A stretch of DNA of 64,000 nucleotides. Origin: Escherichia phage slur16. The translations under genes and the position numbers were made by a program. The DNA lies in sequence record NC_028248.1. The stretch is one strand, 5' to 3'. Under the pieces are notes generated by a model. That model ran no database searches. It saw only the letters and a program-made list of their open reading frames with translations, and was not told the DNA's origin. Shown here one piece after another: positions 28,093-58,352 of this stretch (its first letter is position 1; each line of letters opens with the position of its first letter).

Positions 28093-29199
28093 TTAGATAA
28101 AACGCTTGAACATAGAAGGTGATGAGATTGATGGAATCACACAAGGAAGTGCTACTTCCTCTTTCTCCAGGAAATTAATAGCAGAAGCTACACAGTCAGC
28201 CCAGTCGTCTTTTCTGTTAAATGTTGATCTTTCCCCGTTGAATTTTTCAAGTTCAGTCAGAAATGCTTCCAGAGTATCAGGATGGAAACTGGATTTTACA
28301 ATCCTCACCATTCCTTGTTGGGCAAGATTGGCAAAAGGTGAGAACCTTGTCAGTTTAGATTTGTTGGAAGGCATTGGGTCTTCTTCAACCCTAAACCCTT
28401 CGGCAAGCAAGGATCTGGAGGAGGTTAAGAACTCACTCTTACCTGCCTGACCGGGGTCCACAGAGAATACGATTATACAATCATCACCATCAAACTGCGC
28501 CTGTTTCCTGATGATCACATCTCGTTCACCAGCCTTTTTACAGAACTTGCCTTCTAGACCTGTGGAATACCTCCCGTCATCCACGTTCTCAGGACAATAA
28601 TCACCGGACAGGTAATAAAAGCCGTCGCTATCTTTACTTACCTTAACACTGGCGGTAAAGTCAGGAAATTTATTACCGGAAGTTCTCTCGGTTCCTGCCT
28701 TATCCCATGCCCTGCAAGATACTGATCCAAGGGGTACTCTATCGGCATCACGAAGGAAAGATCTTTGAAAATAGTTTGCGCCCTCAGGCTTTGCAAACCA
28801 GTTACCATGAAGAAGCTGAGCTTTTTCCAGTTCCGGCAGACCTTCAAGGAAAGCAAGGTATTCTGGGTTGTCTCTTAAGCAAACAGGATTATCGAATATT
28901 GTTGCGCCTATAAACGAGAATGACAACGGTCTTGGCTTGATCTCCACACCAAGTCCGTTAACCGTGGTGTATTTCTCTATCAACTCTTCTTTAGAGTCCC
29001 CCCAGATAAATTCACCGTCGCGTCGGATAAAATATCTTTTCTTACCGCATTTCTCCGGATCTGGATACCCTTCATCGTCCAACCACCACCTAACCAGTTT
29101 GGCAAGCATGTGTTCTGAATCGGGGTTACAGCTGATAACCATTCTTGATGGATACTTTGACTGAGATCGCAGACGAGACATCAGATAGTCTATCTGCTC
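28093..29199 (-). CDS. terL: Terminase large subunit, exon 2 (nuclease domain)
   Basis: Downstream frame open from ~29214; RMVISCNPD motif-III-like segment and C-terminal nuclease-type region (GNWFAKPEG...DDWADCVA). The 5' boundary is approximate and depends on the intron 3' splice site. Confidence 0.75.
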   Translation of the reverse strand, partial: EQIDYLMSRLRSQSKYPSRMVISCNPDSEHMLAKLVRWWLDDEGYPDPEKCGKKRYFIRRDGEFIWGDSKEELIEKYTTVNGLGVEIKPRPLSFSFIGATIFDNPVCLRDNPEYLAFLEGLPELEKAQLLHGNWFAKPEGANYFQRSFLRDADRVPLGSVSCRAWDKAGTERTSGNKFPDFTASVKVSKDSDGFYYLSGDYCPENVDDGRYSTGLEGKFCKKAGERDVIIRKQAQFDGDDCIIVFSVDPGQAGKSEFLTSSRSLLAEGFRVEEDPMPSNKSKLTRFSPFANLAQQGMVRIVKSSFHPDTLEAFLTELEKFNGERSTFNRKDDWADCVASAINFLEKEEVALPCVIPSISSPSMFKRFI

Positions 29200-29533
29200 C
29201 CATTCGAATTGTGTCGTTTATGTTCGGGCAAGGTCGCTAGTCTTGCCCCGCCATTTTCAGGCAGCTGCATGTCTCCATGCAGACCAGACTATATCTTATA
29301 AGCGACAACAACCGCTTATCCTCCCGTTTCGAATCGCTTGATTCTACGTCTTTCGACTAGTCGTTGAACGTTCATCCTCTCGGATGCTTCGCTGCGGATT
29401 ATCTAAATTAACACACTGTTACCATACCTTCGATCTCTCTTCGAAGCCTCTATCATGTTACCATGACAGGTTGGTGGTATTAATAGTAAAGATTTCCCCG
29501 CAATTAGGGAGGTTTTACGAGAGCTACAAATTA
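29200..29533 (-). ncRNA. Group I self-splicing intron (ORF-less) interrupting the terminase large subunit gene
   Basis: Minus-strand RNA contains the canonical group I core elements in order: P AAUUGCGGGGAAA (plus 29503-29516), Q AAUCCGCAGC (29391-29400), R GUUCAACGACUAGUCGAAAG (29350-29371), S AAGAUAUAGUCUGG (29284-29297). Exon 1 ends ...GAU GAG GGU immediately followed by an in-frame UAA; no ORF inside. Splice junctions estimated to within ~15 nt. Confidence 0.8.
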
Positions 29534-29959
29534 ACCCTCATCGAAGCAAACCATGGTGTACTCAAGCCCTTGATGGTTAAGCTTATCTTGTACATACTCC
29601 ATGTGGCAGTATTTTACAACAGCTCCCTTTTTGCTTCTATCCCACTTGCCAGTGTTCGGATCAAACCGTGGAAAAATGAACTTATGATCCTTCTCTCTGA
29701 ACTTTGGCTTAATGTTTTCAGGCAGATCACTATAAATAGCTACCGCTTTAGGCCATAGTCCACCCTCACCTTCCAACTGCGGGGTTGTTCTTCGGAACAT
29801 AACCACAGAGCTGTGGGGGTCATCAATAATTTTAAGTGGCATCAATTGCAAGAGGAACGACTTGCCAGACCCTGCGGCACCGCCGATTACCAAAATATCT
29901 GCATCGTTTTCGAGGATCATCTTCTGCTTTTCAGAACACGGTCCGTAAATCTTAGACAT
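29534..29959 (-). CDS. terL: Terminase large subunit, exon 1 (ATPase domain)
   Basis: Walker A GGAAGSGKS and Walker B MVCFDEG; the frame is closed by a UAA that is the first codon of the intron. Confidence 0.75.
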
Positions 29960-31062: not shown

Positions 31063-31139
31063 TGGTCTCCACGGAGTGATTCGAACACTCGACCTCCTGA
31101 TCCCAAATCAGGCGCTCTACCAAGCTGAGCTACGCGGAG
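31063..31139 (-). tRNA. tRNA-Pro (anticodon UGG)
   Basis: Folded by hand: acceptor CUCCGCG/CGUGGAG with C1:G72, anticodon stem CCUGA/UCAGG, loop UUUGGGA with G37, T-loop UUCGAAU, encoded CCA. Confidence 0.85.
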
Positions 31140-31150
31140 TATTTATTATT

Positions 31151-31225
31151 TGGTGGCCCTGGGTGGAATTGAACCACCGTCTGGCGATTATGAGTCGCTT
31201 GCTTGAACCTTCCAGCTACAGGGCC
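31151..31225 (-). tRNA. tRNA-Met (anticodon CAU; elongator type, tRNA-Ile2 not excluded)
   Basis: Acceptor GGCCCUG/CAGGGCC, anticodon loop CUCAUAA, T-arm GGUGG-UUCAAUU-CCACC, encoded CCA; G1:C72 argues against initiator. Confidence 0.8.
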
Positions 31226-31226
31226 A

Positions 31227-31302
31227 TGGTGCTGATGGCAGGACTTGAACCTGCAACCTATTGATTACAAATCAATTGCACTACCAATTGTGCTACATCA
31301 GC
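31227..31302 (-). tRNA. tRNA-Thr (anticodon UGU)
   Basis: 76-nt cloverleaf: acceptor GCUGAUG/CAUCAGC, D-stem GCAC/GUGC, anticodon stem AUUGA/UCAAU with loop UUUGUAA, T-arm GCAGG-UUCAAGU-CCUGC, CCA. Confidence 0.85.
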
Positions 31303-31308
31303 AAAAAA

Positions 31309-31407
31309 GGTGCTAGGTGATGGAATCGAACCACCTATGTATTCAACGACTACCTCGTCTATTTTCAGGATTAAAAATCCTCGCCCTTGCCAAAGGGCTT
31401 ACCTAGC
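31309..31407 (-). tRNA. Aberrant tRNA-like element (99 nt; possible tRNA-Lys UUU derivative with ~26 extra nt)
   Basis: Perfect 7-bp acceptor pairing GCUAGGU/ACCUAGC, D-arm GCCC-UUUGGCAA-GGGC, T-arm GGUGG-UUCGAUU-CCAUC, 3' end ...ACC followed by UUUUUU (no encoded CCA). The anticodon position is a palindromic hairpin AGGAUU-UUU-AAUCCU (alternatively a 4-bp stem with UUUUUAA loop, anticodon UUU), and ~30 nt lie between it and the T-arm. Confidence 0.35.
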
Positions 31408-31505
31408 TCAGTATGTTGACCATGTTGCTAGTCGGCGATGACGACTGTAACATTTGATAATCCGGTTCTGCTTCCGGCTTTCGCTTAATTACAAGGTCAA
31501 CAATA

Positions 31506-31596
31506 TGGCTGAGGGTAATGGAATCGAACCATCATCGAGTCATCCTCAACGGGACGGTTTTCAAGACCGCTTGAGCACCATTGCTCCCTACCCTCA
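31506..31596 (-). tRNA. tRNA-Ser (anticodon UGA)
   Basis: Type II tRNA: acceptor UGAGGGU/ACCCUCA, anticodon arm GCGGU-CUUGAAA-ACCGU, long variable arm (UUGAG-GAUGA-CUCGA), T-arm GAUGG-UUCGAUU-CCAUU, CCA. Confidence 0.8.
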
Positions 31597-31710
31597 TTTA
31601 TAAACAATACTGATAATGACACTGATTTTCGAGCAGTTAGTGACTAGTATAAACGACGATAAATATCAATGCCATTATCTGTATGATTTATGCATTTAAA
31701 ACTATAAATT

Positions 31711-31797
31711 TGGTGGGGAGTGGTGGAGTCGAACCACCCGAGTCGTAATGACAATAGATTTACAGTCTACACCGCTACCTCTACGGGATAACTCCCC
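31711..31797 (-). tRNA. tRNA-Tyr (anticodon GUA)
   Basis: Acceptor GGGGAGU/ACUCCCC, anticodon arm GUAGA-CUGUAAA-UCUAU, long variable arm, T-arm GGUGG-UUCGACU-CCACC, CCA. Confidence 0.8.
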
Positions 31798-31801
31798 AAT
31801 T

Positions 31802-31876
31802 TGGCACCCCGTACTGGACTCGAACCAGTGTCAACGGCTTAGAAGGCCGCTGCTTTATCCACTAAGCTAACAGGGC
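31802..31876 (-). tRNA. tRNA-Arg (anticodon UCU)
   Basis: Acceptor GCCCUGU/ACGGGGU (G-U wobbles), D-stem GCUU/AAGC, anticodon arm GCGGC-CUUCUAA-GCCGU, T-arm CUGG-UUCGAGU-CCAG, CCA. Confidence 0.8.
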
Positions 31877-51064: not shown

Positions 51065-53376
51065 TCACCAAGGTAATTAAAAGCAACGGATGTGAAGTGG
51101 CATTCGATCCAGAACGTTTAAATAAGGCAGCTATTTTCGGTGACGATGGTAACGGCAATTGGTCACATATTGCACTGGATGCCTACAAGCGGTTGTATGA
51201 TGGATGTACAACCAAAGAAGTTAACCAAGCTATTATAGACTCTTGTGTTAGCCGTAAAGACGAAGCACATTCCCGTATGGCTGGTCGTGTTCTCATTGGT
51301 CAGATCTATAAAGAGGCTTTTGGAGGGTTTACAAAGATCCCTTCCTTACCATTATTTTACAATGACATGGTTGAGAAAGGTTATTGGGAGGATATGGGTT
51401 ATAGCTTTACCGAGCTAAACACTTTAGACGCTGTTATTGACCACAGTAAAGATCTCGGTTATGGCTATGCAGTCCTTAAACAGTTTCGCGACAAATACGG
51501 GATCAAGGATACTCTTAAAGACACCTTGTTTGAATCTCCCCAGATGATGTTTATGGGGATAGCAATGGCTGTCATGAAGAATATGCCGAAAGAACGTCGT
51601 ATCAACGATGTTGTAAAATTATACACTTATCTGTCCGACTTAAAGATCAATGCCCCAACACCGTACTTAAACGGGCTGCGCACAGGTAAGACAGGGTATG
51701 CATCTTGTTGTGTAATAAAAGCTGACGATACAGCAAAATCTATTGGTGTGGCACGTGAAGTTGCGTACACAATGACGGTTAACCAGGCAGGTATCGGCTA
51801 CTATTTATCCTCAAGATCTGCAGGCGATGGTGTTCGTGGTAACACTATTAAACATATGGGTAAGATTCCATATTATCGAGGTATTGATGCTGGGGTTAAG
51901 GAGAACAGACAACAATCACGTGGCGGTTCTGCAACAGTATCATTCCTTGCACTGGATCCGCAGATTGATGAGCTAATCCGTTTGAGAAACCCTATGACTG
52001 TTGCTTCAAAAAGAATCAACACCATGGACTACTCTATAGGTATTAACAGGTCGTTTATCAACCGTGTGGCTAAGAATTTAGATTGGATGCTTGTTTCTTA
52101 TAAGCACGCGCCTCAACTGCATGAGGGTATCTTCACCATGTCTATGGAGGAGTTTGATGCAGAGGTTGATCGTATCGCTAAAGATGACAGTATTCCTAAA
52201 ACATGGATCCGAGCTAGAGATCTTGCTGTTGAACTGCTCACGCAGCGTACTGAGGTTGGAAGGCTGTTCGTATACTGGACAGACGAGATGAATAGACATA
52301 CACCTTTTAAAGATGTGATCTATTCAAGTAACCTGTGTGCAGAAATAGCCCTCCCGACAAAAGGCTATTCAGATATGCGTAATATCTTCAAGCACGATGT
52401 TGATGATGGCGAAGTTGCATTGTGCTTCCTGTCATCCCTTGTAGCTGGAAGGGTTACCCCAGAGGAGTATGAGGATGTTGCATATTACACTGTGCTTATG
52501 ATTGACAATGTTATGGAAATCATGACATATCCGTATGAAAATATGGAGAGCACTGTTAAAAAACGCAGATCCATCGGAGTTGGCCTTACCAATGTTGCAC
52601 ATTTTATTGCCAGCCACAAGGTTACTTACGGATCTCCTGAAAGTAAACAGCTTGTTCACGATCTTGCAGAACTTCACAGCTACAGTTTGCATAAGGCAAG
52701 TTTACGATTGGCAAAAGAGCGTGGTGTCTGTGAGTGGATGCATAAAACAAAATACCCGGAGGGTTGGTTACCAATCGACACCTATAACAAAGAGGTCGAT
52801 AGCGTGGTGAAAGATCCTTCTCTTAAACAGGATTGGGAAGGGTTACGTAAAGAAATCATTGAAAATGGTGGGCTACGTAATAGCGTTCTTGAAGCATATA
52901 TGCCTAATGAAAGCTCTTCGCTGGCAACAAACACCACTAACGGGGTTTATCCTGTCCGTGAGCACATTATCTTTAAAAAGTCGCCACAAGGGCAGGTGCT
53001 GTTTATCGTTCCTGACTATGATGAGTTGAAAGAGTATTACACTTCGGCTTGGGACGTTGATACTAACGACATGATCGATATGTATGCTGTGATTCAAAAA
53101 TTCACAGGTCAGGCAATCAGCGCGGATTTATACATAGACTACACCAAGTTGAAAGATGGTAAAATTTCAATGAAGGAGCAGCTAGGGTACCTTATCCGTG
53201 CCACTAAATTCGGGATGAAGACATGGTATTATTTAAACTCTAGGGTTGGTGCTGGTGACTCCTTGGCAGAGGAACTTCATGCCAAGAAACAGGCTGAAGA
53301 TGAAACCAGAAAGAACTACCCTTTGATTGCAGATAGTTCAGTTGAAGATCCGTATTGCGAAAGCTGTGCACTATAA
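51061..53376 (+). CDS. nrdA: Ribonucleoside-diphosphate reductase alpha subunit (class Ia)
   Basis: 771 aa; N-terminal ATP-cone, active-site SSNLCAEIALPT, C-terminal CESCAL; TTG start with GAGGAAG RBS. Confidence 0.9.
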   Translation: MITKVIKSNGCEVAFDPERLNKAAIFGDDGNGNWSHIALDAYKRLYDGCTTKEVNQAIIDSCVSRKDEAHSRMAGRVLIGQIYKEAFGGFTKIPSLPLFYNDMVEKGYWEDMGYSFTELNTLDAVIDHSKDLGYGYAVLKQFRDKYGIKDTLKDTLFESPQMMFMGIAMAVMKNMPKERRINDVVKLYTYLSDLKINAPTPYLNGLRTGKTGYASCCVIKADDTAKSIGVAREVAYTMTVNQAGIGYYLSSRSAGDGVRGNTIKHMGKIPYYRGIDAGVKENRQQSRGGSATVSFLALDPQIDELIRLRNPMTVASKRINTMDYSIGINRSFINRVAKNLDWMLVSYKHAPQLHEGIFTMSMEEFDAEVDRIAKDDSIPKTWIRARDLAVELLTQRTEVGRLFVYWTDEMNRHTPFKDVIYSSNLCAEIALPTKGYSDMRNIFKHDVDDGEVALCFLSSLVAGRVTPEEYEDVAYYTVLMIDNVMEIMTYPYENMESTVKKRRSIGVGLTNVAHFIASHKVTYGSPESKQLVHDLAELHSYSLHKASLRLAKERGVCEWMHKTKYPEGWLPIDTYNKEVDSVVKDPSLKQDWEGLRKEIIENGGLRNSVLEAYMPNESSSLATNTTNGVYPVREHIIFKKSPQGQVLFIVPDYDELKEYYTSAWDVDTNDMIDMYAVIQKFTGQAISADLYIDYTKLKDGKISMKEQLGYLIRATKFGMKTWYYLNSRVGAGDSLAEELHAKKQAEDETRKNYPLIADSSVEDPYCESCAL

Positions 53377-53383
53377 TTTTAAA

Positions 53384-53403
53384 GGGGCTTCGGCCCCATT
53401 TTA
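53384..53403 (+). terminator. Hairpin between nrdA and nrdB (weak terminator/attenuator)
   Basis: GGGGC-UUCG-GCCCC followed by AUUUUA. Confidence 0.35.
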
Positions 53404-53414
53404 GAGGTAGAATA

Positions 53415-54503
53415 ATGGCTGTATTTAATGCTGAGAACACCGCTCATAAAACTGGTGACTATCCGCTGTTTCTGGGACAGCAAATGGGTATGTACGACTC
53501 TATCAACAAAAAATATCCACAACTGTTCGAACTGTACAAAAAACAAAAAGAACAAGACTGGGCAGAGGATGAAGTGGATTTGTCGCAATCTATTTCAGAT
53601 TTTGTAACATGCTCCAAGTCAACTTATGATGTGATGGTGCAGACCTTGATGTGGCAATGGGAGGCTGATAGCGTTGCGGCAAGATCGATCATCTGCCTCT
53701 TTTCACCATTCATCACTAATAGTGAGCTTTTCACTCTATTGATGAAACAGTCAGAGATTGAAGTTCTTCACGCACTAACTTACTCAGAGATTGTTAGACA
53801 ATGCCTCCCCAATGCCCGTGAGATTATAGAAGAGATTCAGGAAAACCAAAACGTTCTGAGCAGATCTGGCGTTATTGTCAAATACATGCAAGAGCTTGAG
53901 GTTATTGGTGCAAAATACCGACTGGATCCTTCTAGTGTTGAAGAGGATATTGTGCGGAAATGCATTCTTAGAGCGCTTTTTGCACTTTTAGCCCTGGAAA
54001 GTATTGAGTTTATTGCAAGTTTTGCATGCACTTTCGCAGTAGCTGAACAGGGTATTTTTGTTCAGGTGGCGCAGCTTGTTCAAAAAATCATGCTTGACGA
54101 AATGCTACATTCGAAAGGTGATTTTGCCATCATTGATATCCTGCTTAATGATCCGGCATGGGAGAAAAGCTTCCTTGAGATAAAAGGGGAGTTAAAAGAG
54201 ATTCTTGATGAAGTACGAACCAAAGAGTACGGTTGGAGTGACTATATTTTCAGCGAAGGAAGAGCGATTATAGGTCTTAACTCACCGTTGCTTAAAGAAT
54301 GGGTTGACTATAACTGCTCACCGATTTATGATTACTACGGCATCGACAAAGACTTTGTGCCGCCAACAAAGGACCCTCTACCGTTTATGCAGGTGTGGAT
54401 GAAACCTTCATTGCAACAGACGGCGAACCAAGAAATGTCGAACACTGACTACCGCGTCAACACAACTGTTAATGACGCTGAAGAAGAAATTTGGGAGTTT
54501 TAA
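53415..54503 (+). CDS. nrdB: Ribonucleoside-diphosphate reductase beta subunit (class Ia)
   Basis: Start at ATG 53415 after AGAGGTAG RBS (the track start 53355 overlaps nrdA); ferritin-like helical protein with acidic C-terminal tail ...DAEEEIWEF; directly downstream of nrdA. Confidence 0.8.
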   Translation: MAVFNAENTAHKTGDYPLFLGQQMGMYDSINKKYPQLFELYKKQKEQDWAEDEVDLSQSISDFVTCSKSTYDVMVQTLMWQWEADSVAARSIICLFSPFITNSELFTLLMKQSEIEVLHALTYSEIVRQCLPNAREIIEEIQENQNVLSRSGVIVKYMQELEVIGAKYRLDPSSVEEDIVRKCILRALFALLALESIEFIASFACTFAVAEQGIFVQVAQLVQKIMLDEMLHSKGDFAIIDILLNDPAWEKSFLEIKGELKEILDEVRTKEYGWSDYIFSEGRAIIGLNSPLLKEWVDYNCSPIYDYYGIDKDFVPPTKDPLPFMQVWMKPSLQQTANQEMSNTDYRVNTTVNDAEEEIWEF

Positions 54504-54506
54504 TAC

Positions 54507-54785
54507 ATGAGCTGTGAAAAATCTTTTTTCTTTATTATTTACGGTAAAGATAACTGCCCACATTGTGTAAGAGCAAAAGAATTTGCAGTCAGTAAAGGTC
54601 TGCCTTTTGTATATAAGACACTTGGCGAGGGTTACACAAAAGAAGAGCTTATTGAGAAGTGCAGTCCAATCGTACCCAGAACGTTGCCGCAGATCTTCTT
54701 AGAAAGCAATCTTGAAAGTGTCCATATAGGCGGTGCCGACGATTTCATCTCTTTTGTTAAGAATGGTTTTGGAGAGAAAAAGTGA
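54507..54785 (+). CDS. Glutaredoxin-like protein (NrdH/Grx)
   Basis: 92 aa with CPHC redox motif (YGKDNCPHCVRAKEF), between nrdB and nrdD. Confidence 0.6.
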   Translation: MSCEKSFFFIIYGKDNCPHCVRAKEFAVSKGLPFVYKTLGEGYTKEELIEKCSPIVPRTLPQIFLESNLESVHIGGADDFISFVKNGFGEKK

Positions 54786-55642
54786 AAGTTGTAAAACGGG
54801 ACGGTAGAGAAGAGGTCTATAACGGAATTAAGGTGATCAAGGCGGCAGAGTCCGCCTTACTTGAGTCTGGACATACTGAAGAAGAAGCTTACCGGATCGC
54901 CTGTGCGGTTAATGAAGTTGTTGCTAACAATCTACCAACCGATCAGTGCACGATCTCTGTAAAAAATATCCATATCCTTGTTGAAGATGCTCTTATGGAT
55001 ATGGGTTTAAAATGTGCAGCCAGAGAATACATCCAGTATAGGCAGACAAGAGATAATAACAGAGAGGCAGGTGGAAAACTGCTTGCAGATATTAGTGGCT
55101 TCTTGGATCGCACTTGTGATGAATTTACAAAAGAAAACGCAAATAAGCCTACCAATCATGTACACACTCATCGTGACCTGCTTGCAGGCATCCTTAGCAA
55201 ACACCTTGCATCAACACAGATCCTGCCAGACCGTGTCTCAGAAGAGCACAATAAAGGCTTCATCCATGTGCATGATCTTGACTACTTGATCAGTCCGTTA
55301 ACAAACTGTTGTTTGGTAAATTATCCAGATATGTTGGAAAACGGATTCAACATTGGCAACGCCCATGTCAGTAAGCCGAAGTCAATAGGGGTTGCAACAA
55401 CAATCCTTAGCCAAATCTCTAGTGCGGTAGCTAGTGCTCAATATGGTGGTCAGACTATGAGCCATATTGATCATTATCTGGCACAGTATGCTGAAGCAAC
55501 CTATGAGAAGAACCTTAAATTTTGCCAGGAACATTGGTTGCCGGATGCTGAAACTGTTGCAATGCAAATGACAGATAAAGACGTATTTGACAGCATGCAG
55601 ACTTTGCTCTATCAAATCAATACGTTAACTTCTGTCAACGGT
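54782..55642 (+). CDS. nrdD: Anaerobic ribonucleoside-triphosphate reductase, exon 1
   Basis: GTG start with RBS; N-terminal ATP-cone-like region; frame closed by UAA immediately after ...AAC GGU, the same arrangement as the terminase intron junction. Confidence 0.75.
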
Positions 55643-56430
55643 TAACAAACTGGCCGTTGTAAAACTCTCCTAACCTCATAAGAGGGGTCGGTAAATCCGG
55701 CTAACGGGGAACGCTAAGGCGAAAGCTATGCCAATCCCGTGACTAGTTCTTACAGGAGTTGGAACGGTTGTAACGACTAACGAAAGGCAGAGATGCTTGA
55801 CAAACATTTCTGAACCAAGTAGTGTAGGGGTTAGTTGAAATACTAACTTCGAAATGGAGAGGCTCTATGAAAAAGATCATTCTTAATGGTGAAGAATCAA
55901 ACTATGTGATTGATGAAGTTGGAAACGTATACGGAAAACGTGGAATGCTGCACCCAATATTGTGGGGAGGTTATGGAAAAGGTAATAAGCATGTTAAACG
56001 CCGTTATATGTACTCTTTCAACCACAAAGGTAAAAAGATTCGAATCCAAACCTCAAGGGTTGTTGCCTTGTATTGTTTGCCAGATGTCCCAGAAGACCCT
56101 GAAAACTGGGAAGTGAATCATAAAGATGGCAATACATTGAATGATCATCCGTCTAACCTAGAGTGGGTTTTGCCGGAAGATAATAAGAGACATGCTTTCC
56201 GAACAGGACTTTGTCCAGGTAAGTGCTATAGGAAAGTGCAGGCATACAAAGGGAAAATCTTGGTGGGTGAATATCCTTCACTCTACGCCTGTGCAAAAGC
56301 CTTAAATTTGAACGTAGGTAACGTTCACAGGGCTATCGAAGGAAATGCCGAAGGTAAGCATCTCACAATAAAGGGTTATTATCTTATTGAAGTAGAGTAA
56401 GAGATAGTCTGGCCCTGTGGAAACACAGGG
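55643..56430 (+). ncRNA. Group I intron interrupting nrdD, carrying an HNH homing endonuclease ORF
   Basis: P/Q-like pair UAACGGGGAACG / AAUCCCGUG (55692-55740), R element GUAACGACUAACGAAAGG (55776-55793) and S element GAGAUAGUCUGG (56401-56412) flank the HNH ORF; nrdD frame resumes after the intron. The 3' boundary is estimated. Confidence 0.7.
55867..56400 (+). CDS. HNH homing endonuclease (intron-encoded)
   Basis: 177 aa; HNH motif EVNHKDGNTLNDHPSNLEWVLPEDNKRH; C-terminal helical DNA-binding-like segment; preceded by GGAGAGG RBS. Confidence 0.75.
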   Translation: MKKIILNGEESNYVIDEVGNVYGKRGMLHPILWGGYGKGNKHVKRRYMYSFNHKGKKIRIQTSRVVALYCLPDVPEDPENWEVNHKDGNTLNDHPSNLEWVLPEDNKRHAFRTGLCPGKCYRKVQAYKGKILVGEYPSLYACAKALNLNVGNVHRAIEGNAEGKHLTIKGYYLIEVE

Positions 56431-57702
56431 AGGAGACAGCAGACTCCATTCATCACATTGAGTTTAGGACTGGATACCTCGGTCTTTGGTAGAATGATTA
56501 CCAAAAACTACCTGAAAGTCCACAAAATGGGTCTTGGTGAAGAACGTATCACACCTGTGTTCCCTAAAGTGCTGTTCTTCCTGGAAGAGGGTGTCAACAT
56601 GAACCCTGGGGATCCTAACTATGATTTGAAACGATTAGCTCTGGAATGCTGTGCAGAACGTATCTATCCTGACTTCGTATCTGTACCACTAAATAGAAAA
56701 GTGACAGGCTCGACAGATGGCAAAGTAACTAGCATGGGTTGCAGGAGTTTTCTTAGCAAATACAATGACTTGGAAACAGGCGAGGAGAAATACCTTGGCA
56801 GATTTAACTTAGGCGTTGTTAGCCTTAACCTGCCAATGATTGCGGCAAAAGCCAAGACGGAAGGTGTTGATTTCTTTGCAGTTCTTGACGAATACTTGGA
56901 TCTTGCATACGAGGCTCACCTTGTAAGGGTTAATCGTCTAAAAGGAACAAAGGCAGGGCAGAACCCCATCATGTGGTGTGAAGGCGCTCTTGCTCGCCTG
57001 GATCCTGAAGAGAGTATTGATAAACTCTTCTATGACGGGTACGCTTCCATCAGTATTGGGTATATCGGTGTGTATGAAACCTGTCAGATTTTGGGCAGAG
57101 AGGGTGACAAGGCTTTAGCTCTTGGAATCCTTCAGCACATGAGAGATGCTTGTGAGCGATACAAGAAGGAAAGTAGACTAGCATTTAGCTTGTACGGCAC
57201 TCCTTCTGAGAGTCTATGCTATAAAGCTGCAACCTGTCTGGATCGTGAATATCCGGAAGTGTTGAAGCACGAGCATGAATATCTCACCAACAGTTTCCAT
57301 CAGCCAGTATGGATAAATAGCTCTCCTTTTGATAAGTGGGAGTATGAGGAAGGTTTTGCTATAATCTCCTCTGGTGGCAACATCGGATACGTAGAAACAC
57401 CTAACCTGAAAAACAACCTGGATGCTTTAGAGGCTCTTGTTGACTTCGGGTATAAACACATTATGTATTTTGGTATTAACCAACCTGTGGATAAATGTCT
57501 CAAGTGTGGTTTCTCTGGTGAGTTCAGTGCAACAGCTAAAGGCTTTGTATGCCCAGAGTGTGGAAACCATGAAGAGGGAACGATCAGTGTAATTCGACGT
57601 GTGTCTGGATACCTTTCCAGTCCTAACTCCCGTCCTTACAATAAAGGTAAGCAAGCGGAAGTTATCGAGCGAGTTAAGCACTACGGAAGTTGTGGTTGCT
57701 GA
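56431..57702 (+). CDS. nrdD: Anaerobic ribonucleoside-triphosphate reductase, exon 2
   Basis: Contains SMGCRS active-site cysteine motif, glycyl-radical motif RRVSGYL near the C-terminus and Zn-site CPECGNHEE; 5' boundary approximate. Confidence 0.75.
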   Translation, partial: RRQQTPFITLSLGLDTSVFGRMITKNYLKVHKMGLGEERITPVFPKVLFFLEEGVNMNPGDPNYDLKRLALECCAERIYPDFVSVPLNRKVTGSTDGKVTSMGCRSFLSKYNDLETGEEKYLGRFNLGVVSLNLPMIAAKAKTEGVDFFAVLDEYLDLAYEAHLVRVNRLKGTKAGQNPIMWCEGALARLDPEESIDKLFYDGYASISIGYIGVYETCQILGREGDKALALGILQHMRDACERYKKESRLAFSLYGTPSESLCYKAATCLDREYPEVLKHEHEYLTNSFHQPVWINSSPFDKWEYEEGFAIISSGGNIGYVETPNLKNNLDALEALVDFGYKHIMYFGINQPVDKCLKCGFSGEFSATAKGFVCPECGNHEEGTISVIRRVSGYLSSPNSRPYNKGKQAEVIERVKHYGSCGC

Positions 57703-57765: not shown

Positions 57766-57882
57766 ATGTCATCAGGTATTTATAAAATTTGCAAGTGCGG
57801 CTGTAGTTGTAATCTTCGTTGGTGCAAGGCACTAGACGATTTTATTTGGCATTGCCCTAAATGTGATGCGGAGTATCTATGA
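57766..57882 (+). CDS. Tiny Cys-rich protein (38 aa), hypothetical zinc-ribbon
   Basis: Not in the track (<60 aa). AGGAGGT RBS 7 nt upstream of ATG; MSSGIYKICKCGCSCNLRWCKALDDFIWHCPKCDAEYL; ATGA overlap with the nrdG start. Confidence 0.3.
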   Translation: MSSGIYKICKCGCSCNLRWCKALDDFIWHCPKCDAEYL

Positions 57883-58352
57883 ACATTGCTGGATACACAG
57901 AAATATCTTACACCGAAGGACCAGGTATTAGAACTGCCTTGTGGGTATCTGGGTGCCCACACGCTTGCCCTGGTTGCTTTAATCAGGCATTTTGGTCAAA
58001 AGATAAGGGGAGGAAGTTCACTGAAGAAGACTTGCAAAAAATCTTGTCAGATTTAGATAACCCGTCTGTGTGCGGTATCTCTCTACTGGGTGGAGAACCC
58101 TTAGCATACTATAATGAGCCAGATATTATTAGCCTGATGGAGAAAATTAAGGAAAAATTTGGTGACAAGAAAACTATTCTTGTATATACTGGGTTCACAT
58201 TTGACCATATCTCTAGTGATGTTCTTAAACTGGCTGATATCATCATTGACGGTAAGTATGTAAAAGATTTACCAACCAAGAAACCGTTCCGAGGCAGTGA
58301 TAACCAAAGAATGTTTAAAAAAGTATCAGGCGGTTGGGTTCAGGTAGACTAG
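57879..58352 (+). CDS. nrdG: Anaerobic ribonucleotide reductase activating enzyme (radical SAM)
   Basis: 157 aa; radical-SAM cluster motif GCPHACPGCFN near the N-terminus; follows nrdD. Confidence 0.8.
   Translation: MNIAGYTEISYTEGPGIRTALWVSGCPHACPGCFNQAFWSKDKGRKFTEEDLQKILSDLDNPSVCGISLLGGEPLAYYNEPDIISLMEKIKEKFGDKKTILVYTGFTFDHISSDVLKLADIIIDGKYVKDLPTKKPFRGSDNQRMFKKVSGGWVQVD

Follow-up and report, generated by a model that had tools for sequence, protein, structure and literature searches.

A probable mobile IA2-like group I intron with an HNH homing-endonuclease gene in nrdD of an rV5-like coliphage

Since T4, group I introns that carry homing endonucleases have been known from phage ribonucleotide reductase (RNR) genes, and a phage RNR gene that is found in two pieces around an endonuclease gene raises the question of whether these pieces are the exons of a single spliced gene or two genes for separate polypeptides. 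The question arises for nrdD, which has been reported to be split more often than any other phage RNR gene (PMC3653736), in the 64,000 nt of Escherichia phage slur16 (sequence record NC_028248.1) that were analysed and are called the window here. The phage is an rV5-like Vequintavirus and is named slur12 in the comparisons; features are on the plus strand unless stated otherwise.

All of the computational tests that are available support the original prediction in its main point, the presence in nrdD of a group I intron that encodes an HNH homing endonuclease, and we consider it very probable that a mobile IA2-like intron of this kind interrupts the gene. What had to be changed concerns mainly the 3′ end of the intron and its supposed kinship to a second intron in the same genome.

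The interrupted gene and the fold of the intervening RNA

Exon 1 of nrdD (55642 being its last base, 54782-55642) encodes an ATP-cone domain, matched in Pfam, and the N-terminal part of NrdD, and its final codons are UCU GUC AAC GGU (SVNG). Exon 2 (56440-57702) runs from QTPFITLSLG through the stop codon and contains the MGCRSF and RRVSGY glycyl-radical motifs. The Pfam NRDD profile is split between the two, with positions 1-154 in exon 1 and 155-562 in the second ORF, where the Gly_radical domain is also matched (4.9e-23); joined, the exons give a full-length NRDD profile plus a glycyl-radical domain, as is required of a class III (anaerobic) NrdD. The gene nrdG lies downstream (57879-58352). 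The N-terminal ORF had been correctly delimited as 54782-55642, and next to it stands an in-frame UAA stop (55643-55645) made of the first three bases of the intron, an arrangement that is also present in the terminase intron of the window and in the T4 td and nrdD introns.

When 55643-56439 is removed, a 2124-nt ORF results that is collinear with the nrdD genes of rV5 and rV5_ev156, with the junction SVNG|QTPF and with 2107 of the 2124 nt identical to rV5_ev156 (the uninterrupted rV5 nrdD DNA includes TCTGTCAACGGGCAAACTCCATTC). The intervening 797 nt (55643-56439), an exact insertion relative to uninterrupted alleles, are identified as a group I intron with an IA2-like core and an ORF in P8 by partial matches to Rfam RF00028, by their helices and by minimum free energy (MFE) folds. 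Among 119 related records, 26 have the ORF-containing intron and 14 an ORF-less form of 257 nt, the rest being empty at the site. In the nrdD of some relatives there is also a second, independent intron, at the catalytic SMG|CRS site.

At the 5′ end, P1 (55636-55659) is formed by exon bases CAACGGU and U55643 with the internal guide GGCCGUUG (55652-55659), the strand CAACGGUU making 8 of 8 pairs with it and U55642-G55653 being the wobble at the 5′ splice site; pair 3-26 covaries between exon and guide, from C-G in the HEG+ form to A-U in the ORF-less form. A possible P10 would pair CUG (55650-55652) with the CAG of exon 2 (56440-56442). The 5′ strand of P3 (CUCUCC, 55665-55670) forms 6 of 6 pairs with GGAGAG (55856-55861), is found by MFE folding in two sequence forms and shows a compensatory change from C-G to G-C in the ORF-less form. 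Between it and J3/4-P4 lie two extra hairpins, provisionally named P3.1 (55674-55685) and P3.2 (55686-55702). The P4-P6 domain (55705-55769) consists of P4 (CGGGG/UCCCG, both strings identical in T4 td), P5/P5a (55713-55731), whose sequence resembles the 11-nt GAAA-tetraloop receptor (GCUAAG...UAUGC), and P6/P6a (55741-55769).

The R element GUAACGACUAACGAAAGG (55770-55787) and the S element GAGAUAGUCUGG (56401-56412) are where they had been expected, with the HNH ORF between the strands of P7. Specifically, the 5′ strand of P7 (GACUA, 55775-55779, inside R) forms 5 of 5 pairs with UAGUC (56405-56409, inside S), a placement given also by the Rfam alignment of J8/7-P7, and is invariant across variants. 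P7.1 (55788-55812) and P7.2 (55827-55850) follow with 8 of 8 and 9 of 9 pairs, and the stretch closes at 55855 with CGAAAU before the 3′ strand of P3. The 5′ strand of P8 (GCUCUAU, 55862-55868), which includes AU of the ORF's start codon, forms 7 of 7 pairs with GUAGAGU (56392-56398), which is made of the ORF's last codons and the U of its UAA stop; the substitution G55862A in phage FV3 preserves the P8 pair, changing G-U to A-U. The P9 hairpin (CCCUGUG-GAAA-CACAGGG, 56413-56430) has 7 of 7 pairs and a compensatory change from C-G to U-A in the ORF-less form.

All core helices (P1, P3-P9, P7.1/P7.2) are thus present, including the P3/P7 pseudoknot, and none has a broken pair. Over six variants, pairing is found in 318 of 318 cells (slid controls, 33-55%), and there are four compensatory double changes, in P1, P3, P3.2 and P9, although these six variants represent only two sequence lineages. 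Unconstrained MFE folding of the two divergent forms recovers P1, P3, P4-P6, P7.1, P7.2, P8 and P9 (z=-4.6 and z=-3.4), so that the structure prediction that had been proposed as a check bears out a group I fold, its helices recovered and fully paired.

This core speaks against the alternative that the insertion is an endonuclease cassette that is never spliced out, and that NrdD is made as two assembling polypeptides. Such a case is known from Aeromonas phage Aeh1, where a lytic-phage RNR gene is likewise interrupted by an HNH endonuclease gene (nrdA/mobE), the nrdA insertion is described as staying in the transcript, with two peptides being made for NrdA (PMC7344957), so that functional split RNRs have a precedent (PMC7344957, PMC3653736); moreover, two nrdD coding sequences are annotated in many records, including slur12, FV3 and nom. 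Unlike Aeh1 nrdA, however, the nrdD of the window has a complete, covarying ribozyme core around the ORF, and the U before the 5′ splice site and the G at the intron end stand at exactly those junctions that restore the uninterrupted protein. The ORF-less 257-nt version would be purposeless as an endonuclease cassette, and in the frame of exon 2 the first listed start codon is a TTG at 56458, 6 codons inside the exon, so that a separate polypeptide starting there would lose QTPFIT from the conserved NGQTPF segment. A split gene of this type is accordingly regarded as very unlikely.

In the preferred reading, a spliced group I intron, the intron would be transcribed within the nrdD message, and ribosomes translating exon 1 would stop at the UAA that its first three bases provide. 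The RNA would fold into the group I core, free guanosine would attack after U55642, held in P1 by GGCCGUUG, and the freed exon 1 would then attack after G56439, joining AAC GGU to CAG ACU and restoring NGQTPF.

The endonuclease gene and intron mobility

The HNH homing-endonuclease gene (55867-56400, 177 aa) is looped out of P8, and its product is matched in Pfam, PHROG and PDB. HNH_3 (PF13392) scores above the Pfam cut-off (29.5 bits versus 24.8, 5.9e-7) over residues 78-107 (NHKDGNTLNDHPSNLEW), PHROG 59 is matched at 3.6e-26, and residues 8-160 align to residues 8-159 of I-HmuI (PDB 1U3E) with E=1.8e-4. I-HmuI is encoded in the group I intron of the DNA-polymerase gene of Bacillus phage SPO1 and nicks one DNA strand. 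The two proteins are of near-equal length (174 aa for I-HmuI), collinear over these residues and alike in the HNH motif and, more tentatively, in a C-terminal NUMOD-like helix-turn-helix, for which the Pfam score here (PF22083, the I-HmuI NUMOD-like family; 18.4 bits, 1.7e-3) is under the 27-bit cut-off. They differ in that their identity is low, target gene and host are not the same, and the 177-aa protein has ‘VNH’ where I-HmuI has ‘VDH’ (Asn aligned with Asp). Within the window no paralogues of the HNH protein were found.

The ORF is under purifying selection, since 17 of the 19 substitutions between FV3 and slur12 fall at third codon positions. A search for a sigma-70-like promoter before the ORF found none. 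Its Shine-Dalgarno sequence (GGAGAGG, 55856-55862) doubles as the 3′ strand of P3, with the start codon located in P8; folding of the intron and translation of the endonuclease would therefore be mutually exclusive, and the overlap of P3 and Shine-Dalgarno sequence may regulate the translation of the enzyme.

The protein in the P8 loop, an HNH enzyme of apparent I-HmuI type, is probably a nickase with site specificity. During mixed infections, the enzyme would cut uninterrupted nrdD near the insertion site, and recombinational repair would copy the intron, along with some flanking exon sequence, into the cut genome. Around the site, genomes with the ORF-less form show 15-18 substitutions per 100 nt, where the background is 1-4, and this form is bordered by exon co-conversion tracts.

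Subgroup, extra hairpins and related introns

The covariance-model search that had been suggested gave a mixed answer: in E-value mode the match of the nrdD intron to RF00028 is significant (E=3.9e-5), but at 28.8 bits it stays under the gathering cut-off of 50 bits, and its 5′ half is misplaced inside the ORF. The P4-P7 region gives a sub-hit of 11.3 bits (55704-55780, model positions 60-149), and the ORF-less homologue reaches 29.3 bits (E=1e-5). At the gathering score, RF00028 matches the terminase intron only and no nrdD intron in the window or the relatives searched. The low score is probably due to the insertion of about 600 nt in P8 and to the pair of hairpins that separates P3 from P4 and that the model treats as an insertion.

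The helices P7.1 and P7.2 define subgroup IA2 in the classification of Michel and Westhof, and both are found here between the 5′ strand of P7 and the 3′ strand of P3. The other IA2 feature, a 5′ strand of P3 that abuts J3/4-P4, is missing, as the hairpins at 55674-55702 intervene. These hairpins are absent from the T4 td, T4 nrdD and terminase introns and present in an intron subfamily of viral contigs, where an equivalent hairpin stands directly 5′ of UAACGGGG in 29 of 29 related sequences, with 28 different stems. They are the sole mildly unusual feature of the intron, and one that it shares with this subfamily from uncultured phages. It is possible, if unlikely, that these introns form a structurally distinct and undescribed IA2-like subfamily (without P2, with two covarying hairpins between P3 and J3/4, of which the second always has GU...GC followed by UAACGGGG), common in contigs of uncultured phages and missed by RF00028 at its gathering score. 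A blastn search with one member from the viral contigs gave no match among cultured phages. In the literature, nothing relevant was found under ‘P3.1/P3.2’ as a name for helices in this place, the only precedent found being the ‘noncanonical insertion between P3 and P4’ of yeast aI5beta (PMC2396411).

The Rfam scores under threshold and the uncommon hairpins could also be taken as signs of an intron in decay that has lost splicing, nrdD being effectively a pseudogene because the anaerobic RNR is dispensable. Against this, both exons are intact in 40 genomes and near-identical (94-100%) to uninterrupted alleles, no helix has a broken pair and the changes that occur are compensatory, strong covariation marks the extra hairpins as conserved across the wider subfamily, and purifying selection acts on the endonuclease ORF. 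There is thus little to be said for decay, which we judge highly improbable.

The nrdD intron had been thought to match closely the intron of the terminase gene. Indeed, a second group I intron does exist there (29265-29543, minus strand; 84.3 bits with RF00028), and introns in the terL of rV5 have been published (PMC3606486). Like the nrdD intron, it has no P2 and shows GUAAAA-P3-UAA, the GGU|UAA junction and a GNRA-capped P9; unlike the nrdD intron, it is ORF-less, matches Rfam well, has a different P4-P6 domain and is without the hairpins between P3 and P4. When the ORF-deleted nrdD intron was globally aligned and scored against shuffled sequences, however, z was only 2.3 with the terminase intron, compared with 4.2 with the T4 nrdD intron and 1.5 (slur12 form) or 3.8 (ORF-less form) with T4 td, whereas the terminase intron aligns to the T4 introns with z of about 9.5. 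The U|UAA junction occurs in T4 td (GGGU|UAAU) and T4 nrdD (GAGU|UAAC) as well, as do the R and S strings, and these features are therefore a family consensus. The prediction of two introns in one genome thus holds, but the close match between them is not confirmed, and a special kinship is not supported, the features that they have in common being generic to phage IA2 introns.

The T4 nrdD (sunY) intron, an IA2 intron, shares with the intron described here the host gene, an IA2-type core with P7.1/P7.2, GUAGGG...CGAAAY before the 3′ strand of P3, the lack of P2, GUAAAA before P3 and the U|UAA 5′ junction, and both introns are inserted in the same conserved segment of NrdD. The differences are that (i) the T4 insertion lies upstream by 11 codons (AYEY|EVNTLFSSNG-QTPF versus SVNG|QTPF here), (ii) the T4 intron has I-TevII, of the GIY-YIG family, after P9, and not an HNH enzyme in P8, and (iii) it has no counterparts of the two hairpins P3.1 and P3.2, with overall sequence similarity being weak.

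The 3′ splice site and the annotation of nrdD

While the 5′ boundary (55642|55643) had been placed correctly, as the insertion relative to uninterrupted alleles starts there, the intron had been thought to end at 56430 after about 790 nt, and the C-terminal ORF to span 56431-57702. The motifs and the glycyl-radical domain of that ORF stand, and only its start has to be moved: collinearity with uninterrupted alleles puts the 3′ splice site at 56439|56440, with G56439 as the terminal (omega) G, 9 nt downstream. The in-frame G candidates at 56430, 56433 and 56442 are ruled out as 3′ ends by the same collinearity, and a 5′ splice site after U55643, which pairs in P1 too, was dropped because no in-frame terminal G fits it.

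The earlier position is where the P9 hairpin ends and where the Rfam alignment likewise stops. An intron ending at G56430, with a spliced junction AACGGU AGGAGACAG CAGACU and three additional residues in NrdD (NG-RRQ-QTPF), would have its G in the correct frame, which is open from 56431, but has almost no chance of being right, given that uninterrupted alleles are shorter by exactly 797 nt and not 788, that RRQ occurs in none of the uninterrupted NrdDs, that G56430 itself belongs to the P9 stem, as its final base, that the different 3′ tail of the ORF-less form, GUGGGGACCG, also ends in G at the position aligned with 56439, and that a curated GenBank join has the junction equivalent to 56439.

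This join is found in the BASEL phage WalterGehring (MZ501111), which is 99% identical in DNA across the whole locus and whose nrdD coding sequence is annotated in two pieces around a ‘putative homing endonuclease’; its NrdD (QXV85697.1 / YP_011997805.1) equals the predicted spliced product residue for residue. According to the BASEL paper, comparative genomics served to define the boundaries of introns. The nrdD intron is therefore already annotated, with identical boundaries, in GenBank and RefSeq records of sister Vequintavirus phages, and in the slur12 record nrdD still appears as two fragments, alongside a hypothetical protein. A literature search for the nrdD intron in rV5-like phages turned up only papers on the introns of the terminase gene (PMC3606486) and the statement on annotation in the BASEL paper, and no paper was found that describes the structure of the nrdD intron or tests its splicing.

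As a discovery, the intron is of little importance, and its practical value lies in annotation: a joined nrdD coding sequence, with the junction AACGGU|CAGACU, is warranted in slur12, FV3, nom and many other records. In addition, empty sites, introns without the ORF and introns with the endonuclease gene occur side by side among close relatives, whose nrdD exons are 93-100% identical, and form a convenient natural series for the study of the homing cycle.

The interrupted nrdD gene and its splice sites

The 2921-nt nrdD locus is identical (100%) to that of Escherichia phage slur12 (LN881735.1) and 94-99% identical to those of other rV5-like Vequintavirus genomes, and it lies in the usual nucleotide-metabolism block: nrdB (53355-54503), glutaredoxin (54507-54785), nrdD, a small ORF between nrdD and nrdG, and nrdG (57879-58352). 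Nineteen GenBank 'Campylobacter phage' records (MG0656xx, host Campylobacter jejuni) carry an nrdD 94-99% identical to that of E. coli rV5-like phages, which suggests mislabelled or contaminating coliphages in that data set.

Split phage nrdD genes are well documented (PMC3653736), splicing of HNH-containing introns has been shown by RT-PCR in related Certrevirus phages (PMC7344957), and this nrdD intron is already annotated, by comparative genomics, in the BASEL collection. It is a known, ordinary element, which the original prediction recognised correctly, erring in its 3′ end and in a proposed kinship with the terminase intron. Specifically, the predicted division into an N-terminal ORF and a C-terminal ORF with GCR and RVSGY motifs was borne out: the first ORF (54782-55642), ending in ...TSVNG with UAA immediately after, carries an ATP-cone and positions 1-154 of the Pfam NRDD profile, and the downstream frame carries positions 155-562 and the glycine-radical domain, with the motifs MGCRSF and RRVSGY. 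The predicted HNH ORF is also present (55867-56400; Pfam HNH_3 above the curated cut-off), and the opposite strand of the intervening sequence has no open frame longer than 50 aa.

Among 119 related phage records, nrdD spans 2124 nt when uninterrupted and 2921 nt in the slur12 form (the allele of the window), a difference of 797 nt. Removal of 55643-56439 restores an ORF of 2124 nt whose alignment to nrdD of rV5 and rV5_ev156 is gap-free (2107/2124 positions identical to the latter), with the junction SVNG/QTPF (the slash marks the splice or insertion site here and below); a U precedes the 5′ junction and the final intron base is G56439. As an independent check, the nrdD sequence of phage WalterGehring, read from the start codon used in BASEL and spliced at the corresponding positions, yields exactly GenBank QXV85697.1 / RefSeq YP_011997805.1. 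The predicted end at 56430 is 9 nt off (788 nt implied vs 797 nt from uninterrupted alleles) and would insert RRQ, residues absent from all uninterrupted alleles; 56430 is the final base of the P9 hairpin, where the Rfam alignment also ends. The junction reads GGG CAA in intron-less alleles, GGU/CAG with the ORF-containing intron and GGU/CAA with the ORF-less intron. The exon-end U (GGU, vs GGG when intron-less) is required for the splice-site wobble pair, and the G of CAG presumably extends a 3-bp P10 with CUG (55650-55652).

RNA fold and the region between P3 and P4

A complete set of fully paired helices can be drawn for the intron. P1 pairs exon CAACGGU and U55643 with GGCCGUUG (55652-55659), and P3 pairs CUCUCC (55665-55670) with GGAGAG (55856-55861); 3′ of the P3 5′ strand lie two extra hairpins (55674-55685 and 55686-55702; P3.1 and P3.2), followed by J3/4-P4 (AA-CGGGG paired with UCCCG). 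P5/P5a (55713-55731) contains GCUAAG...UAUGC, which in sequence resembles the 11-nt GAAA-tetraloop receptor, and we infer that it receives the GAAA loop of P9. Beyond P6/P6a (55741-55769), the predicted R and S strings were located at 55770-55787 and 56401-56412, and P7 pairs GACUA (55775-55779) with UAGUC (56405-56409). P7.1 (55788-55812) and P7.2 (55827-55850) precede CGAAAU and the P3 3′ strand; P8 pairs GCUCUAU (55862-55868) with GUAGAGU (56392-56398), and P9 (CCCUGUG-GAAA-CACAGGG, 56413-56430) is followed by a nine-base tail, AGGAGACAG, ending at G56439. The HNH ORF loops out of P8. The P8 5′ strand contains the beginning of its start codon, and the final codons of the ORF, together with the stop codon, make up the P8 3′ strand; the Shine-Dalgarno sequence of the ORF, GGAGAGG, coincides with the P3 3′ strand.

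Covariance-model search and structure prediction had been proposed as checks on a group I fold. At the gathering score, Rfam RF00028 does not report the nrdD intron. In E-value mode it scores 28.8 bits (E=3.9e-5), with J8/7, P7 and P9 placed correctly and the 5′ half forced into the ORF; a separate match covers P4-P7 (55704-55780, 11.3 bits), and the natural ORF-less version (257 nt, phage nom) reaches 29.3 bits (E=1e-5). When the slur12 RNA without its ORF and the nom RNA were folded by minimum free energy (MFE) with no constraints, each independently gave P1, P3 enclosing two hairpins, P4-P6, P7.1, P7.2, P8 and P9 (z-scores of -4.6 and -3.4, respectively, with 0 shuffles folding as well). 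In an alignment of six variants, which represent only two lineages, the 54-pair structure has standard pairs in 318/318 cells. Both partners have changed in four of the pairs, which belong to P1 (including an exon base), P3, P3.2 and P9, one per helix; when partners are shifted by 1-3 columns, pairing falls to 33-55% and at most one compensatory pair remains.

In T4 td, T4 nrdD and the terminase intron, the canonical IA2 examples examined, the P3 5′ strand immediately precedes J3/4-P4, whereas two hairpins intervene in the rV5-type nrdD intron. The P4...P4′ strings, used as a pattern to search viral contigs, gave 82 loci; GCUA precedes ACGGGG in 27 distinct viral-contig sequences and the two rV5-type forms (n=29), and a GU...GC hairpin of 5-9 bp lies directly 5′ of UAACGGGG in 29/29, with 28 different stem sequences, vs only 33% of shuffled controls reaching 5 bp. 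The MFE fold of L021, an unrelated member with no ORF, again pairs the strand 5′ of the hairpins with the one just before P8. The only precedent found in the literature is the sequence inserted between P3 and P4 of yeast aI5beta (PMC2396411). Together with the P8 ORF, these hairpins probably explain the low Rfam score. Many introns of uncultured phages (viral contigs L007-L088) have the arrangement GUGAA-[hairpin]-GU-[GU...GC hairpin]-UAACGGGGAAC, and a smaller group and the rV5-type nrdD intron have the P1 loop UAACAAAAUGGCC in common; within this set, nrdD was matched only by L024, L048, L067 and L072.

The endonuclease and the forms of the intron

The HNH protein (177 aa) matches Pfam HNH_3 and PHROG 59; its residues 8-160 are collinear with I-HmuI (PDB 1U3E), of almost equal length, and its C-terminus has a weak NUMOD-like match under the Pfam cut-off. 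As 17 of the 19 differences between the slur12 and FV3 ORFs fall at third codon positions, the gene is under purifying selection. Among cultured phages, 26 records encode this protein at >=95% identity, every one in this nrdD intron; the next relatives, including SPbeta yosQ (the bnrdF intron enzyme), are at most ~45% identical, except for a single record at 60-80% and a short match of 36 residues at 58%. No paralogue occurs within the window.

The distribution of the intron and its flanking exons point to a mobile element. Among close relatives, whose nrdD exons are 93-100% identical, the site occurs in three states: 26 records have the 797-nt intron with its ORF, 14 have the 257-nt ORF-less intron, and rV5, like most records, has no insertion there. 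The two forms are 87% identical over the first 141 nt and diverge in P7.1-P8, and therefore the short form did not arise from the long one by a recent deletion. Short-form carriers show 15-18 substitutions per 100 nt in the exon sequence flanking the site (positions -57 to +39, approximately), vs 1-4 elsewhere, a peak that would be expected of co-conversion from a divergent donor.

A second, unrelated group I intron (762 nt) interrupts nrdD in some relatives, phiWec191, YP-6, HMD-6, phita32, JEP1, C2 and 241Ecol014PP (loci L094:1462-2223, L002, L092 and L093); its insertion point falls precisely at the Gly/Cys codon boundary in the catalytic SMG/CRS motif (AUG GGU/UGU AGA). Its core appears T4 td/sunY-like, with a different HNH ORF in the P6 region. 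Slur12 lacks it (empty site at 56739/56740). In more distant nrdD homologues, on viral contigs L024, L048 and L067, the interruption falls at roughly this residue. In FV3 (L091), also without the second intron, the exon immediately 3′ of the site (nt ~1100-1240) carries 24 substitutions per 100 nt and has lost 3 nt (SKYNDLETGEE to GKYVTP-GDE), a pattern that may be a mosaic/recombination footprint or an endonuclease-resistant variant. On the 137-kb rV5-like viral contig L072 both introns are ORF-less (L072:1728-1984, 257 nt; L072:2285-2535, ~251 nt), and thus both exist with and without endonuclease genes.

Relationship to the terminase and T4 introns

Rfam clearly identifies the terminase intron, 29265-29543 (-), as group I (84.3 bits). 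It is ORF-less and has a GGU/UAA 5′ junction; it splits the large-subunit gene (flanks 28093-29959) and has P9.1/P9.2-like extensions. Terminase introns of rV5 have been published (PMC3606486), two being reported in terL, one with an endonuclease. A cluster of six tRNA genes (Rfam) lies at 31066-31876 (-), two of them near threshold (29.9 and 35.5 bits).

The suggested kinship of the nrdD and terminase introns was not supported. In global alignment against shuffles, z is only 2.3 for the ORF-deleted nrdD intron aligned with the terminase intron. For the nrdD intron it is 4.2 with the T4 nrdD intron and, with T4 td, between 1.5 (slur12 form) and 3.8 (ORF-less form); the terminase intron aligned with T4 introns reaches a z of ~9.5. 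The U/UAA junction and R/S consensus are also seen in T4 td and T4 nrdD. Given these scores and shared features, the resemblance is at the family level and does not indicate a recent common origin in the genome. The T4 nrdD intron, for its part, has its insertion site 11 codons upstream, within that conserved segment of NrdD (AYEY/EVNTLFSSNG-QTPF), and encodes a GIY-YIG-family enzyme, I-TevII, in a loop other than that holding the rV5-type HNH ORF; the T4 and rV5-type nrdD introns invaded this conserved stretch separately.
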